Of a DNA stretch of 64,000 nt, positions 28,608 to 34,461 are shown piece by piece; within the stretch, counting starts at the first letter, position 1, and each line of letters starts with the position of its first letter. The stretch covers positions 521,015 through 585,014 of the forward strand of contig JBLYPX010000001.1 of NCBI GenBank assembly GCA_048538235.1, read 5' to 3'. The notes below the pieces were generated by a model. It saw nothing but the letters and a program-made list of their open reading frames with translations. It was not told the origin of the DNA and did no database searches. This DNA is from Candidatus Komeilibacteria bacterium. Its GTDB lineage: Bacteria > Patescibacteriota > Patescibacteriia > UBA1558. Both the position numbers and the translations under genes were made by a program.

Positions 28608-29060
28608 TTATTCAGCACTAGCTTCTGTAGAAGCCTTAGCTCCTTTTTTATCTAAACGCGCTCCATATAATGAACGACTTTGTTTTCGACCTTCTACTCC
28701 TTGGGTGTCATAGACACCACGAACCACATGATAACGAACACCAGCAAGATCTCTAACACGACCACCACGAAGTAGTACAATAGAGTGTTCTTGTAAATTG
28801 TGTCCTTCACCAGGAATATATGCTGTTACTTCCATACCATTAGATAGTCTAACTCTAGCAATCTTACGTAAAGCTGAGTTAGGTTTCTTTGGGGTAGTTG
28901 TAGTAACTTTAACACATACGCCACGTTTAAAAGGAGCGCCTTCTGGATGGTTATCTCTTTTTCTCTTTAAAGCATTAAGAGTATAACGCAAGCCAGGAGC
29001 TTTCGCTTTCTTTTTCTTAGACTTTCTTGGATTTTTTAACAATTGATTTGTTGTAGGCAT
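28608..29060 (-). CDS. rpsL: 30S ribosomal protein S12 with a short C-terminal extension
   Basis: [13 protein letters not shown]...[10 protein letters not shown] core. Extra C-terminal [17 protein letters not shown]. Confidence 0.9.
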
Positions 29061-29235: not shown

Positions 29236-29865
29236 CTAAACCAGACTATATATCATATTAACGAAAAACCCTATTATTCTACCAAAAATACCTAGCCCTA
29301 AAAAAGAATCTGCTATTAATAGTATTAATAAAAGCCAAGGCCCTTGTTGGCTTAAAAACACCTTAATATTATTATATTTAGCTGGTAATACATCAAATAA
29401 AAACTTTGAACCATCAAGTGGAGGTATAGGAATAAGATTAAATATCATTAAAACAGTATTTACTATTATTAAGGAAATTAAAAAAGCAGGTAAAAGAGTG
29501 GTAAACAAAAACGGTGAAATAACTGAAAGAATCTTCAATATTATAAAAAATACAATAGCACTGATTAAATTAGCTAGTGGTCCAGCTAAAGAAACTATAG
29601 TATTCCCCCACTTTTTGTTCTTAAAGTTGGCAGGATTTACAGGTACTGGCTTAGCCCAACCAATAACCAATGGACTGCCAGATAAAATAAGCATAGCCGG
29701 CAAAAGGATAGTACCAAAAGTATCCATGTGAGGAATTGGGTTTAAAGTAAGTCTATTATTTAATTTAGCTGTCACATCACCTTGTTTATACGCTGCTAGA
29801 GCATGAGAGAATTCATGCACAACAATTGCGTATAAAACTGACAATATTTGTATAATAACTAGCAT
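29236..29865 (-). CDS. site-2 protease family zinc metalloprotease (peptidase M50)
   Basis: 209 aa polytopic membrane protein with HEFSHA (HExxH) in the first TM region and a downstream LDGS-like motif (PPLDGSKF). Confidence 0.75.
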   Translation of the reverse strand: MLVIIQILSVLYAIVVHEFSHALAAYKQGDVTAKLNNRLTLNPIPHMDTFGTILLPAMLILSGSPLVIGWAKPVPVNPANFKNKKWGNTIVSLAGPLANLISAIVFFIILKILSVISPFLFTTLLPAFLISLIIVNTVLMIFNLIPIPPLDGSKFLFDVLPAKYNNIKVFLSQQGPWLLLILLIADSFLGLGIFGRIIGFFVNMIYSLV

Positions 29866-29936: not shown

Positions 29937-30104
29937 ATGGCCAAAGTATGTGAAGTCTGCAAGCGCGGAACAACATCTGGACAAACAAAAAGTCACTCTC
30001 AAATCAAGACCAAGCGTCAGGTTAAAATAAATTTACAGACAAAGGTTGTAGATGGCAAGAGAATCAAGATTTGTACCAAGTGCATAAAGACTATGAATAA
30101 ATAA
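29937..30104 (+). CDS. rpmB: 50S ribosomal protein L28 (zinc-ribbon type), below the ORF-track size cut-off
   Basis: Manual translation gives MAKVCEVCKRGTTSGQTKSHSQIKTKRQVKINLQTKVVDGKRIKICTKCIKTMNK (55 aa), matching the L28 consensus MAKVCEVCGK..GN.VSHSN.KTKR..NLQ...CT.C. Confidence 0.8.
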   Translation: MAKVCEVCKRGTTSGQTKSHSQIKTKRQVKINLQTKVVDGKRIKICTKCIKTMNK

Positions 30105-30114
30105 ATTTTATACT

Positions 30115-30145
30115 AAAAAAGCTCCTAGACGACTAGGAGCTTTTT
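30115..30145. terminator. bidirectional terminator after rpmB (also serves the convergent gene 30161-30751)
   Basis: aaaaa-gctcctag-acga-ctaggagc-ttttt. Confidence 0.6.
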
Positions 30146-30160
30146 ATTTTATATATTTAC

Positions 30161-30751
30161 TTATTCTAGAACAAATTCTACATTATCATCCCCTACAATA
30201 ATATCCTGAAGTTTAATATCATTACTAAAAAAGAAATCAGATAAAAACTCTAATTGATCAAACAATAATCTCCCTACTAAAGAGCCCGGAATAAATAGCC
30301 CTTTATACCTAGCCTTTGTAACATGAAAATATAATTGTTGCTCCATAGCCTCTATTCTAACCTCAATATATGCATTACCCTTGATTGGTTTTAAAGCATA
30401 ACCTTCTAATACAAACTTATTATCTTTTAAACTTAACTTAACATCTTGAATTGGTGGATTAGAATATTTTTTTAATTGCTCTTGTAAAATATAGTTAAGC
30501 TCAGCTACTGAAATATTTGTGTACTCATTATTTGCTGCAACCAAAGATAAATCATTTTCACTATACGCTTCCAACCACATTGCTAATTTATCTTCTGCAT
30601 TTAACTTTTGTTGTGAAGTTAACTCCTCAACAGCAACCACTTCATTATTGTCGTTATTTCTCCACCATAATAGATCTGAAAAAGAAAATGCATATGAAGT
30701 ATTTGGAATAATAAGCACAACCAGCATAATTATTAATAATAGTTTTTTCAT
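30161..30751 (-). CDS. hypothetical secreted protein
   Basis: 196 aa with N-terminal signal peptide MKKLLLIIMLVVLIIPNTSYA. No recognised domain. Confidence 0.5.
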   Translation of the reverse strand: MKKLLLIIMLVVLIIPNTSYAFSFSDLLWWRNNDNNEVVAVEELTSQQKLNAEDKLAMWLEAYSENDLSLVAANNEYTNISVAELNYILQEQLKKYSNPPIQDVKLSLKDNKFVLEGYALKPIKGNAYIEVRIEAMEQQLYFHVTKARYKGLFIPGSLVGRLLFDQLEFLSDFFFSNDIKLQDIIVGDDNVEFVLE

Positions 30752-30807
30752 AAAATCTAGGTAAAATAATTAATATTTCTATCATCATTATACCAAAATT
30801 AAAGTAA

Positions 30808-31057
30808 TTAAAAAACCACTACATAATGTAGTGATTTTTCAAGTTCTAGTCAGCTTGACTGAAGATTGGAAGTTCCGATAGCCATCCGGGCAGTCTCTCA
30901 ATCATAAGACAATTAAAAGTTTAACACCTTAATTACTCAGTACCGAAAAACTATAATGCCGCTGGGCGTCCTAGAATACGAACCAAGGTCCATATTTCAC
31001 ACAAACTCCCTAATAAAGTAAGGTTGTAGAAATTCAATCTGTCAAAGTGACTAGAAC
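30808..31057 (-). ncRNA. candidate small RNA (unclassified, roughly 250 nt) with near-consensus promoter, long 5'/3' closing helix and intrinsic terminator
   Basis: Minus-strand promoter TTGACG-16-TATAAT. 5' end GUUCUAGUCACUUUGAC pairs with 3' GUCAAGCUGACUAGAAC. The helix extends by AGAUUG/CAAUCU. Terminator CACUACA-UUA-UGUAGUG plus GUUUUUU. No ORF. GC above flanks. Confidence 0.5.
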
Positions 31058-31063
31058 ACTTTA

Positions 31064-31091
31064 ATTATATCACTACAATTATTCCCGTCAA
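31064..31091 (-). promoter_or_regulatory. near-consensus sigma70 promoter (TTGACG-16 bp-TATAAT) for sRNA candidate B
   Basis: Minus-strand -35 at 31091-31086, -10 at 31069-31064, predicted TSS about 31057. Confidence 0.55.
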
Positions 31092-31142
31092 ATGTAAAAA
31101 AACAACTAAATTTCATAATTAATAATATTGGCTAAGATAAAA

Positions 31143-31169
31143 CAAAAACCCCGCTTCTATAAAGCGGGG
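31143..31169 (-). terminator. rho-independent terminator after ndk
   Basis: ccccgctt-ctata-aagcgggg, followed on the minus strand by uuuuuguuuu. Confidence 0.6.
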
Positions 31170-31183
31170 CATTAAATATCTAA

Positions 31184-31648
31184 TTATTTTTCATCATCTG
31201 CATATACCCATTTCCAATCGTCTTTCTCATAAGTAAATATTTCATCTTCCTTAAAAAATCTCTTAATTTCAGCTTCAGCTGCTTCTGCAGAATCTGAAGC
31301 ATGCACAATATTATTTGAATGACTCATAGAAAAATCTCCGCGAATAGAACCTGAGTCAGCTTTACGACCCACTGTCGGACCAACAATAACCCTTACAGCG
31401 TCAATAGCATCATAACCTTCAATAGCGATAAATATTACTGGTGCCGATTGCATAAAACCTTTTAGTCCTGTAAAGAATGGCTTATCTTTGTGATGACTAT
31501 AGTGTTCATCTATTTGTTCATCTGAAATACGGCCCATCTTTAGACCTGCAATTTTTAATCCTTTGTTTTCAAAACGTTTAATAATCTCACCCAATAGATT
31601 GCGTTGCAAACAATCTGGTTTGAGAATAATAAGACTTTTCTCCATCAT
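31184..31648 (-). CDS. ndk: nucleoside diphosphate kinase
   Basis: 154 aa with the active-site His context NIVHASDS and ILKPD-like N-terminus. Confidence 0.9.
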   Translation of the reverse strand: MMEKSLIILKPDCLQRNLLGEIIKRFENKGLKIAGLKMGRISDEQIDEHYSHHKDKPFFTGLKGFMQSAPVIFIAIEGYDAIDAVRVIVGPTVGRKADSGSIRGDFSMSHSNNIVHASDSAEAAEAEIKRFFKEDEIFTYEKDDWKWVYADDEK

Positions 31649-31650
31649 AA

Positions 31651-32022
31651 TTATTTTTTAAAATGTTTATTAATTTTAATAACTAGTTCTCCTGGTGTCA
31701 TATCTGCTTTTACAAAATAACCAACAGCTCCTAACTCCTTACCCTTAGCCGTATCTTCTTCTTGACCCAAATTTGTAAGCATATATACAGGAATATTCTT
31801 AGTGAACTCATCCGACTTAATTTCCTCCAAGACAATAAAGCCATCTTTCTTTGGCATAATAATATCTAATAACACCAAATCTGGTTTAAGACTCTTTGTT
31901 AGCTGAACTCCAGTCTCACCATCCCTAGCTACTTCAACTTCATAGCCAGCTTTAACCAATTTTAGCTTATACATATTAGCCAAAATTTCTTCATCTTCAA
32001 TTAATAGAATTTTTTTTGCCAT
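31651..32022 (-). CDS. stand-alone response regulator receiver domain (CheY-like)
   Basis: 123 aa, acidic pocket DEE...D (LLDIIMPKKDG) and conserved T/K positions. No output domain. Confidence 0.8.
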   Translation of the reverse strand: MAKKILLIEDEEILANMYKLKLVKAGYEVEVARDGETGVQLTKSLKPDLVLLDIIMPKKDGFIVLEEIKSDEFTKNIPVYMLTNLGQEEDTAKGKELGAVGYFVKADMTPGELVIKINKHFKK

Positions 32023-32075
32023 AAATATATCTTAATAATGTTTGTATTATAGCCTAATATTTTATGATTTACAAG

Positions 32076-32924
32076 TTATTTTAGCCAATAATTATATCCA
32101 TCTGTATTAATAACAATATCTCCCAAATTATCGTTTCTTAGTATTCTAATACCCAATTTCTCCAATCTTTTAATAATCCTTAAATGTGGATGTTTAAATT
32201 TATTATCTACACCAGACTGAATAACTGCTGTACTAGCATTAACAGCTTTTAACCAATCCTCACTATTTGAATATTGACTGCCATGATGAGCAACTTTCAA
32301 TATATCTGCACTCACATCTTGACCGCTTACCAGGATCTTTTCCTCCACATCTATAGTTGCGTCCCCTGTTAACAAAACACACACCTCAATATAACAATAT
32401 TTAGCAACCACTGAAGTATCATTCACATCATCTGCTTTCTGACCCACATACTCTTCAAAAGGATATACAATCTCTAAACTTGAATTTTTGAACGTATATA
32501 TATCTCCAGCAATCGTTGACTCTAAAGTAAAACTATTATCTTCAATTAATTGCAACCACTCTAAATATGACGCCGCCATATAATCTATATACCCGGGAAA
32601 CAATATTAAATTGACAGAATATCTTTTTAAAACTTCATTTAAGCCACTAACATGATCATCATGCGCGTGGGTTAAAATCATTAAATCTATACTTTTGTCA
32701 TAAAAAGATAAATATGGCCCCAACTTACTTATTAAATAATTACCTGGGCCACCATCTATTAATATTCTTTCCTTATCTGGTGTAATAATTAATATTGCGT
32801 CTCCTTGACCAATGTCTAAAAATACAATCTTGGCAATATTATCAGTATCTGTTTGTAAATAAACAATAATTAAACTTAAAGCTATGCCAATAATTACAAA
32901 TATATATTTTCTATACTTTTTCAT
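32076..32924 (-). CDS. comEC: ComEC C-terminal metallo-beta-lactamase domain protein (probably the 3' portion of a frameshift-split comEC)
   Basis: TM segment, then FLDIGQGDAILI...IDGG and HAHDDHVSGL (HxHxDH) MBL motifs. Confidence 0.7.
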   Translation of the reverse strand: MKKYRKYIFVIIGIALSLIIVYLQTDTDNIAKIVFLDIGQGDAILIITPDKERILIDGGPGNYLISKLGPYLSFYDKSIDLMILTHAHDDHVSGLNEVLKRYSVNLILFPGYIDYMAASYLEWLQLIEDNSFTLESTIAGDIYTFKNSSLEIVYPFEEYVGQKADDVNDTSVVAKYCYIEVCVLLTGDATIDVEEKILVSGQDVSADILKVAHHGSQYSNSEDWLKAVNASTAVIQSGVDNKFKHPHLRIIKRLEKLGIRILRNDNLGDIVINTDGYNYWLK

Positions 32925-34461
32925 TTGATCTAAATTTAATAAAAAATATACAAGAGTATATAAAGAAAATATATAACCAATTTATCTTTGGCAATTCAAT
33001 GGCTGCTAATGGTAGTGATCCCAACCAATTAACAATTTCTATTTGTTTATTTAACATGCCATAAACTATCCAAAATAAAGGAACAGATATGGTTGGAATT
33101 AATAAGTTTAATATTATTCCAACAATAGATAAACACATTAACAGTGGTAAGGTTGGCAATAATAATATATTGGCAATAGGAAAAACAAGAGAAGCTTGGT
33201 TAAATTTAAACACGATCCACGGCAATGTTAATATCTGAGCTGCAAAGGTTGCTTGCAAAATTGCTTTAATACCAAATAATACTGGTAATCTTTTAAATAA
33301 CTTTCCCACATCATCTGAAAATAGAACCAGGCTTAAAACCGCTAAAAAAGATAATTGCCAACCAATATCATAAACAAGTAATTTTGGATTAAACATAAGG
33401 GTAATAATTGCTACCAATATTAATGCAAAATAACTTTTGTTAACTCTACCAAAATAATCTGCAATTAATAATACTGATCCCATCATTCCTGCTCTAATTG
33501 CTGAAGCGGGCATTCCAATCATTAATATATACATAAATAATATTAAAAGAGCTATGGGGTAAGTTAATTTTTTTGGTAAATAAAAAGCAGTCAAAACTCT
33601 AACTAATAATAATGAAATAATAGATACATGCATTCCAGATATAGCTAATAAATGTGATACACCCGCTTTACTGAAATTATCTACAATATCTGTTGGAATA
33701 CTTCTCCTTCTCGCTAAAAGCATTGCAGATAATATACTAGCCTCTGGTTCAACTATATTTTTTTGAATAACTTGATGTACTCTATCTTTAAAATCTACAA
33801 TTTTTCTCTTTAAAATATATTTATCTGCTAAACCAATATATTTAACTATGGGGCTATAGCACAAAGAGTAAATATCATATCTAGATAAATAATCATCATA
33901 AGCAAAATCTTCAATTTTATCAGGCTTAATTAGTTTACAATCTAGTTCTAGTTCATCTCCTACAAAATATTCAGGGTATAAAGAAGACTTTACTAATACA
34001 AGACCATTCACATTATGCCAGATATTATCTACGTATATACCCTCCGCTTTAACTGTTAGTTTATTATGGTCAACACGTTTATCCACCTCATTAACCACAC
34101 CTCTAAAATGTAAATCCTTCATGTCTGACCAGTCTGCAGCTATATTATTGTAAAAAGCTATATGATTAGAATTAATCACAGGAAAAGAATAAATAAATCT
34201 AATATATCCAGCTAATATACTAAATATAATTAATAAAAATAATATTATTTTTTTGTTCTTAGAAAATAATACAAACAAAGGAATAAATAATAGTAATACA
34301 AGCCAACTAATATGAATAGAAAAAACATTAGCTATAATAATGCCAATTATGAACATGAAACTATAAATAATAAACAATTTTTGACTCATACTTGACTTAA
34401 TTATCAATACCGTGTAAATTAAATAATTATCTGAACATTCAACCCAAAACGCGTTAAACAA
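32911..34461 (-). CDS. comEC: ComEC/Rec2 competence channel protein, N-terminal DUF4131 plus Competence domain (lacks the MBL domain)
   Basis: 516 aa polytopic membrane protein. Its end overlaps the next ORF by 14 nt in the +1 frame at an A5 run. Confidence 0.75.
   Translation of the reverse strand: MFNAFWVECSDNYLIYTVLIIKSSMSQKLFIIYSFMFIIGIIIANVFSIHISWLVLLLFIPLFVLFSKNKKIILFLLIIFSILAGYIRFIYSFPVINSNHIAFYNNIAADWSDMKDLHFRGVVNEVDKRVDHNKLTVKAEGIYVDNIWHNVNGLVLVKSSLYPEYFVGDELELDCKLIKPDKIEDFAYDDYLSRYDIYSLCYSPIVKYIGLADKYILKRKIVDFKDRVHQVIQKNIVEPEASILSAMLLARRRSIPTDIVDNFSKAGVSHLLAISGMHVSIISLLLVRVLTAFYLPKKLTYPIALLILFMYILMIGMPASAIRAGMMGSVLLIADYFGRVNKSYFALILVAIITLMFNPKLLVYDIGWQLSFLAVLSLVLFSDDVGKLFKRLPVLFGIKAILQATFAAQILTLPWIVFKFNQASLVFPIANILLLPTLPLLMCLSIVGIILNLLIPTISVPLFWIVYGMLNKQIEIVNWLGSLPLAAIELPKINWLYIFFIYSCIFFIKFRSNEKV

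Follow-up and report, generated by a model that had tools for sequence, protein, structure and literature searches.

A probable divergent 6S RNA gene with an enlarged bubble arm, belonging to an ndk-linked RNA family of Patescibacteria

What is encoded on the minus strand between the gene for nucleoside diphosphate kinase (ndk) and its downstream neighbour in the window (the whole 64,000-nt stretch of DNA analysed), and to which class of RNA does it belong? The earlier note had read positions 30808-31091 as a stand-alone non-coding RNA, running from promoter to terminator and closed into a 6S-like rod, and had left its family unassigned. The sequence evidence set out below indicates that this interval is a real, independently transcribed gene for a structured RNA, with a predicted minus-strand transcript of ~ 215 nt.

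The proposed sigma-70-type promoter (31064..31091, minus strand) was recovered in full, with TTGACG as the -35 hexamer (31091..31086), a 16-bp spacer ending in TG and TATAAT as the -10 hexamer (31069..31064). It scored 11/12, carries a TG-extended -10 and ranked top of 12 promoter-like sites in 30000-32000. The predicted start is a G at 31057, seven bases 3' of the -10, and the closing stem has its predicted 3' end at 30843, which gives an RNA gene of 215 nt (30843..31057, minus strand; the window coordinate of RNA position n is 31058 - n). The intrinsic terminator (30808..30842, minus strand) was also present as claimed and consists of an A-tract, a CACUACA-UUA-UGUAGUG stem and GUUUUUU (U6); the scan as a whole found five terminator-like sites against 0.6 expected. 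The scan flagged this terminator, whose stem is preceded by an A-tract and followed by a U-tract, on both strands; it is possibly bidirectional, though it faces no convergent gene. The GC excess seen earlier was real (0.37-0.40 in the interval vs 0.26-0.30 in the flanks), and so was the non-coding character, with no ORF of at least 40 aa between 30788 and 31180. A small-ORF reading (AUG at RNA nt 64-66, 18 codons) was dismissed because sequence variation tracks base-pairing rather than codons. A 250-nt minus-strand transcript folded at -81.1 kcal/mol (z = -6.5, none of 200 shuffles as good), compared with z = -3.4 for the plus-strand fold of the interval.

The pairing of the two ends described previously was confirmed in our fold, all elements of which lie on the minus strand. 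Closing stem P1 joins GUUCUAGUCACUUUGAC (31041..31057, RNA nt 1-17) with GUCAAGCUGACUAGAAC (30843..30859, RNA nt 199-215) over 17 positions comprising 15 standard pairs, one G-U and one C-C mismatch, and AGAUUG/CAAUCU extends it to ~ 25 bp in all. Helix P2, bordering the central bubble, is formed by AGAUUGAA (31033..31040, RNA nt 18-25) and UUCCAAUCU (30863..30871, RNA nt 187-195; UU(C)CAAUCU); in eight homologues, an extra G in the 5' strand (AUUGGAA) provides a partner for the C left as a bulge in the window type. The 5' strand of the central bubble, UUUCUACAACCUUACUUUAUUA (31011..31032, RNA nt 26-47), contains the block (C/U)UCUACAA, kept in all long forms (the full-length homologues described below), and no covarying partner was found for this strand. 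It is followed by the apical (internal) arm (30964..31010, RNA nt 48-94; GGG-A-GUUU ... AGGAC-G-CCC), the upper hairpin of which ends in a CUUG loop (30987..30984, RNA nt 71-74), and by a long hairpin arm of 75 nt in the 3' half of the central bubble (30887..30961, RNA nt 97-171). The 3' bubble single strand, GAUGGCUAUCGGAAC (30872..30886, RNA nt 172-186), holds the conserved blocks GAUGG/UUGG and GGAAC.

A first structural model, combining a hairpin P3 (YCUU/AGGG) with a long-range helix Px (GUUY with GGAAC), was superseded because it showed little covariation and clashed with the GGG-A-NNNN/NNNN-A-CCC arm, whose covariation is strong; Px may represent an alternative conformer. Separately, GGGAGUU(Y) (RNA nt 48-55, 31010..31003) is in all long forms also complementary to (R)AACUUCC (RNA nt 183-190, 30875..30868), which covers the 3' bubble strand and the 3' strand of P2; 90% of alignment cells pair and covariation is almost nil. 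This pairing may be coincidental, or it may represent another conformer, comparable to the 'central bubble collapse helix' of B. subtilis 6S-1.

Homologues were collected and inspected for covariation, as the earlier note had suggested. An nhmmer search with the window RNA returned two copies among 80 ndk loci, L001 and L061, both of which share the context comEC, metallo-beta-lactamase, response regulator and ndk. A pattern made from the conserved 5' blocks identified 54 metagenome stretches, of which 15 held full-length homologues; a pattern scan of viral contigs found nothing. Collectively, 18 long forms (198-215 nt) from Patescibacteria genomes and metagenomes preserve the fold through compensatory changes. 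A -10 hexamer is placed 6-8 nt upstream of the modelled RNA 5' end in all 18, with a TGn extension in 14 and a -35 element of at least 5/6 matches in 11, and a hairpin with a T-run follows within ~ 50 nt of the closing stem in ~ 13 of the 18.

Closing-stem sequences are wholly different across lineages (GUUCUAGUCA..., GCCCUACC..., GCUCUAAUCA...) with pairing kept, and outer pairs of P1 covary (e.g. CG:12/UA:6 and CG:9/UA:8; alignment A1, helix 1). Under a 53-pair model, 90.5% of cells in alignment A1 formed standard pairs, vs 73.5% in shuffled alignments and 33-53% when the strands were slid by 1-3 columns; compensatory changes affected 35 of the 53 pairs, a level reached in none of 500 shuffles. 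The 75-nt arm takes part in this pattern, with compensatory changes in 14/15 modelled pairs (alignment A1, helices 8 and 9). Primary sequence is conserved in the blocks CUCUACAA, AGGGAGUU, ACCCAGC and GGAACUUCCAAUC. Covariance model R1, representing the long form, scored 191 bits on the window copy, and 172.6 bits on the forward vs 18.2 bits on the reverse strand of L061; these scores, the fold z-scores and the G-U pairs settled the minus strand. Homologues, covariation, conserved promoters and strand-specific G-U pairs and model scores thus confirm a conserved, independently transcribed structured RNA, in support of the stand-alone RNA with a 6S-like rod put forward in the earlier note.

Upstream of the RNA, the minus strand encodes Competence/ComEC (32911..34461), a metallo-beta-lactamase (32076..32924), a response-regulator receiver protein (31651..32022) and ndk (31184..31648); downstream of it lie a 196-aa protein with no Pfam match (30161..30751) and an M50 peptidase (29236..29865), all other assignments being from Pfam. 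The closest relatives of this ndk all belong to Patescibacteria (candidate phyla radiation, CPR) MAGs, namely Komeilibacteria and Kerfeldbacteria, with up to 94% identity. Among the long forms, ndk is found upstream in 9/18 loci, which is every locus with sufficient flank, and the downstream gene varies. Neighbour clustering across the 18 long-form loci revealed no recurrent partner protein gene beside the RNA apart from housekeeping ndk.

The order ComEC, metallo-beta-lactamase, response regulator, ndk and RNA is conserved on a single strand (30843..34461, minus strand, in the window); the loci listed for gene order or ndk linkage are L001, L061, L100, L102, L115, L127, L133 and ~ 36 ndk loci. 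The RNA follows ndk in many lineages of Patescibacteria, with no functional reason apparent for the linkage. The gap between the two genes is 127 nt in the window, and in some relatives it consists of 0.9-2.1 kb of ORF-poor DNA (L061 4460-6250; L133 1392-3544; L098 573-2200; L100 3026-4051; L001 4465-5363); the gaps of L001 and L061 gave no Rfam match at gathering thresholds. The 196-aa protein has a signal-peptide-like N-terminus and recurs downstream of the RNA in L133, L110 and L102. Elsewhere in the window, an S12-like ORF of 150 aa (28608..29060, minus strand) lies upstream of those for S7 and EF-G; it carries an additional basic segment close to its N-terminus and an Ala/Ser/Glu-rich C-terminal tail.

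The RNA is always flanked by ndk and by a co-oriented gene further downstream, with a terminator after the structure. This might be expected of a cis-regulatory element, which would be either a leader or riboswitch acting on the gene that follows or a structured ndk 3' UTR. We regard this reading as very improbable, because the RNA has its own strong promoter, located after the ndk terminator (31170..31148, minus strand; terminator scan), and because a terminator/antiterminator switch would not fit beside a closing stem of 25 bp. The downstream gene, moreover, has an extended -10 of its own (TGGTATAAT, 30787..30795, minus strand, just after the RNA terminator and before the 196-aa protein gene) and differs by locus, being that for the 196-aa protein, an ABC-type 600-aa protein or a tRNA, and the ndk-RNA distance varies from 94 to 2152 nt.

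The independently transcribed RNA is not confined to its long form. R1 also produced weak matches in other Patescibacteria loci, on the ndk strand and mostly right after ndk, where inspection identified short forms of 122-132 nt with their own promoter and terminator. A second model, R2, built from 11 short forms, matched 36/80 ndk loci at E ≤ 1 (29 at E < 0.01), all on the ndk strand and most starting 25-250 nt after ndk; it also cross-detected the long forms L001, L061, L015 and L060, plus L072. As R1 matches short forms next to ndk and R2 matches long forms, both were treated as one family, with matches in a total of ~ 40/80 ndk loci, all on the ndk strand and mostly directly after ndk. Three related forms measure 189-234 nt. 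The family is spread through Patescibacteria, usually just downstream of ndk.

Its common core consists of the closing stem, an unpaired 5' strand, a 45-49-nt arm (GGG-A-helix...C(U/G)UG loop...helix-A-CCC) and then a 3' hairpin. In the short forms, predicted independently, this hairpin has 5-8 bp and takes the place of the 75-nt arm of the window type; the 3' bubble hairpin has grown into the 75-nt arm in the window's lineage. P2 and the 3' hairpin are in competition for a shared 3' strand in three short forms (L031, L038 and L047).

Across 33 members compared, the apical arm is 45-49 nt long in 32 and flanked by GGG-A/A-CCC in 31. The four positions next to GGG-A/A-CCC all pair, in a fixed register, in 29/33 members, using GC/GU/AU/UA, UA/UG/GC/CG/GU, UG/UA/CG/GU and UG/CG/UA at successive positions; the four exceptions were register shifts or, in L088, divergence. 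RNAalifold applied to the 33-sequence arm alignment (A4) recovered GG/CC, the adjoining helix and the upper hairpin, with compensatory changes in 13/15 pairs, and 95.1% of cells pair, with a covariation score of 0.874 vs 0.285 for shuffled (0/500 as high) and 0.08-0.20 for slid alignments. A-CCC is followed by ACCU(G/A)G in short forms and by AGCRGC in long forms. Unconstrained minimum free energy (MFE) folds of most members gave the closing stem, an open bubble, the GGG/CCC apical arm and the 3' hairpin, and enforcing GGG/CCC cost at most 1.6 kcal/mol in 32/33, the exception again being L088. Bubble sizes parsed from per-sequence MFE folds were noisy, since RNAfold places weak pairs that are not conserved throughout the bubble.

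L088 (6299-6496) is the most divergent long form. In it, CUC replaces CCC, a symmetric CAA/CAA internal loop separates CAC/GUG from GCC/GGC, and the GGG/CCC register of the family costs 8.3 kcal/mol.

Family assignment was approached through Rfam 15 (4227 families; the scans covered ~ 300 kb of Patescibacteria DNA). The interval matched no family at gathering thresholds, nor at E ≤ 10 in a 501-nt search, and the tested family loci gave no match at gathering thresholds. Long pairing of the 5' and 3' ends is also a feature of other housekeeping RNAs, and the gene could in principle be an SRP RNA, RNase P RNA, tmRNA or Y-like RNA in disguise. None of these reached a gathering score or E ≤ 10, and such an identity is the least probable of all those considered. 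tmRNA (RF00023 and variants) has a tRNA-like domain with T-arm and CCA end and a tag reading frame; ARAGORN found only two tRNAs and no tmRNA in the window, in agreement with the earlier note, which could not match the RNA to tmRNA. SRP RNA is recognised by helix 8, with its GNRA loop and symmetric and asymmetric loops, and the GNRA/AGCA helix-8 motif is absent from the sequence (RF00169 / RF01854). RNase P RNA (RF00010 / RF00011) has a P4 pseudoknot with the blocks GGAAAGUCC / ACAGAA..GGCUUA. The vague likeness to P4 noticed earlier (GGAAGUUCC...CCGGGCAG) turned out to be on the plus strand, which is not the transcribed one, and to lack support; the RNase P reading was rejected because promoters, terminators, G-U pairs and fold z-scores all favour the minus strand and because the P4-like helix is nested, not pseudoknotted. 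SRP RNA, RNase P RNA and tmRNA are excluded to the extent that the models can show.

Three further resemblances found no model support. The hairpin-UGCGAAC-ACCCAGC stretch loosely resembles an SRP Alu domain, GCCCUAC...GUAGGGC is tRNA-like and CCCACCUG is 5S-like.

Among the families named by the earlier note, the evidence favours 6S. We consider it probable, though well short of certain, that the interval encodes a highly divergent 6S RNA (SsrS-type) of Patescibacteria, in or near the Komeilibacteria-Kerfeldbacteria group, and that the window RNA is a new structural variant of 6S RNA, distinguished by the 75-nt arm that it carries in the 3' half of its bubble. The 6S model RF00013 (gathering score 46.4 bits) was the top family match for L047 (17.4 bits, E = 0.1) and for L031 (27.6 bits; E = 3.7e-4 in 201 nt, 0.11 in 61 kb), and the top non-tRNA match for L078 (32.3 bits, E = 0.0085 in 63 kb). 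Each of the three alignments runs the whole length of the model and matches the most conserved 6S consensus blocks, i.e. GGG-a-helix, the apical CUUG loop and helix-a-CCCACCUgga. In the family, blocks of the GGG-a-helix ... helix-a-CCCACCU type surround the apical arm. 6S RNA is defined by a closing stem made of both ends, a central bubble and an apical stem-loop (PMC8876501); the family has this rod, with a largely unpaired bubble, and deviates from it in the large arm on the 3' bubble strand.

The same scores may be read differently. No tested family member reached the 6S cut-off, the best relatives lying at 17-32 bits, and the window's own long form gave no 6S match even at E ≤ 10, so that a new structured RNA class specific to Patescibacteria (e.g. 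an RNP scaffold or ribozyme), with a three-way-junction fold only superficially like 6S, has to be weighed. Such a class would explain why block conservation (CUCUACAA, AGGGAGUU, ACCCAGC, GGAACUUCCAAUC) is strong, a trait commoner among RNP or catalytic RNAs than in 6S, why a 75-nt arm stands where 6S is normally single-stranded, and why the gene is tightly linked to ndk, which is not a known 6S trait. The unusually strong sequence conservation of the 5' bubble (CUCUACAA) counts against 6S in its own right. So do the atypical sizes, with short forms of 122-132 nt and a long form whose bubble holds a 75-nt arm that could hinder the binding of polymerase. With ~ 300 kb of Patescibacteria DNA scanned, a canonical 6S gene may also lie at another place in these genomes. 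The failure of R2 to match E. coli ssrS also seems to fit a new class; this test was uninformative because 6S RNAs share little sequence identity across phyla. On the other hand, 6S was the best of 4227 families on three independent relatives (for L078, the best bar a tRNA), the overall layout is exactly that of 6S, and housekeeping ndk is the sole recurrent neighbour. A new class of this kind is therefore unlikely in our judgement, albeit to be taken seriously. Somewhat more doubtful still is the fuller version of it, in which a phylum-wide, ndk-linked non-6S RNA of two sizes with conserved single-stranded blocks has a function unrelated to polymerase sequestration, e.g. as scaffold of an unknown RNP in these episymbionts with reduced genomes.

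Size gives a further comparison. 6S RNAs are roughly 150-200 nt long; the long forms measure 198-215 nt, the three related forms 189-234 nt and the short forms 122-132 nt.

If the RNA is a 6S RNA, its mode of action can be proposed by analogy with E. coli 6S and B. subtilis 6S-1, for which promoter mimicry and pRNA-driven release are established (PMC8876501). The rod with its open central bubble would mimic an open promoter and occupy the active site of the housekeeping sigma-RNA polymerase holoenzyme, which would be sequestered under nutrient scarcity. On the return of NTPs, the polymerase would copy the 5' bubble strand into a short pRNA; this would invade P2, the RNA would refold and the polymerase would be released. 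By the same analogy, RNA nt 26-47 are presumed to be the pRNA template, the likely template being the conserved CUACAAYC block adjoining P2, and a pRNA begun opposite C35/C36 would, speculatively, read 5'-GGUUGUAGAAAUUC. A pRNA-triggered release hairpin between 3'-bubble GAUGG/UUGG and the 3' strand of P2 scored no better than shuffles in the long forms, although one is plausible in L134, L105 and L098. Sequestration and pRNA release are thus suggested by analogy for an RNA whose fold, promoter, terminator, family and synteny are shown above.

Much of bacterial diversity belongs to the Patescibacteria (CPR), whose genomes are tiny and about whose regulation little is known. Our literature search turned up no publication that connects 6S RNA to Patescibacteria or the candidate phyla radiation, one unrelated paper mentioning both terms. 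New here is a phylum-wide, ndk-linked, Rfam-invisible 6S-like family, of which the window holds a long form with an extra bubble arm. Should the 6S reading hold, minimal, host-dependent bacteria would retain an RNA decoy for the global control of RNA polymerase, annotation pipelines would systematically miss its gene, and the scaffold could shrink (to ~ 125 nt) or grow (by a 75-nt arm in the bubble) with its core kept. The alignments and ndk synteny offer a handle for phylum-wide annotation and for pRNA hunting in metatranscriptomes.

Compared with 6S RNA (RF00013; E. coli 6S, B. subtilis 6S-1), the family is likewise stand-alone and strongly promoted, with a closing stem formed by its 5' and 3' ends, a central bubble with an unpaired 5' strand, and an apical arm with a CUUG-type loop enclosed by GGG-A...A-CCC, followed in short forms by ACCUGG. 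Its hairpin on the 3' bubble strand has a counterpart in free B. subtilis 6S-1 (PMC8876501), and the competition of the short-form 3' hairpin with P2 for one strand resembles the release hairpin of E. coli-type 6S, which uses the 3' strand of P2 (PMC8876501). It differs from 6S in scoring 17-32 bits against a cut-off of 46.4, with the window long form unmatched, in the enlargement of the 3' bubble hairpin to a covarying arm of 75 nt and the reduction of short forms to 122-132 nt, and in its strongly conserved bubble and P2 sequence blocks and conserved ndk linkage. Another parallel is Ms1 RNA of Actinobacteria, a 6S-like RNA that binds the RNA polymerase core (PMC9130861): Ms1 too is a lineage-specific 6S-like rod, missed by 6S covariance models and traced by synteny. 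The two share no sequence or model match, however, and whereas Ms1 measures ~ 300 nt and is without the 6S-type bubble signature, the Patescibacteria family retains the GGG-A...A-CCCACCU signature of 6S RNA.
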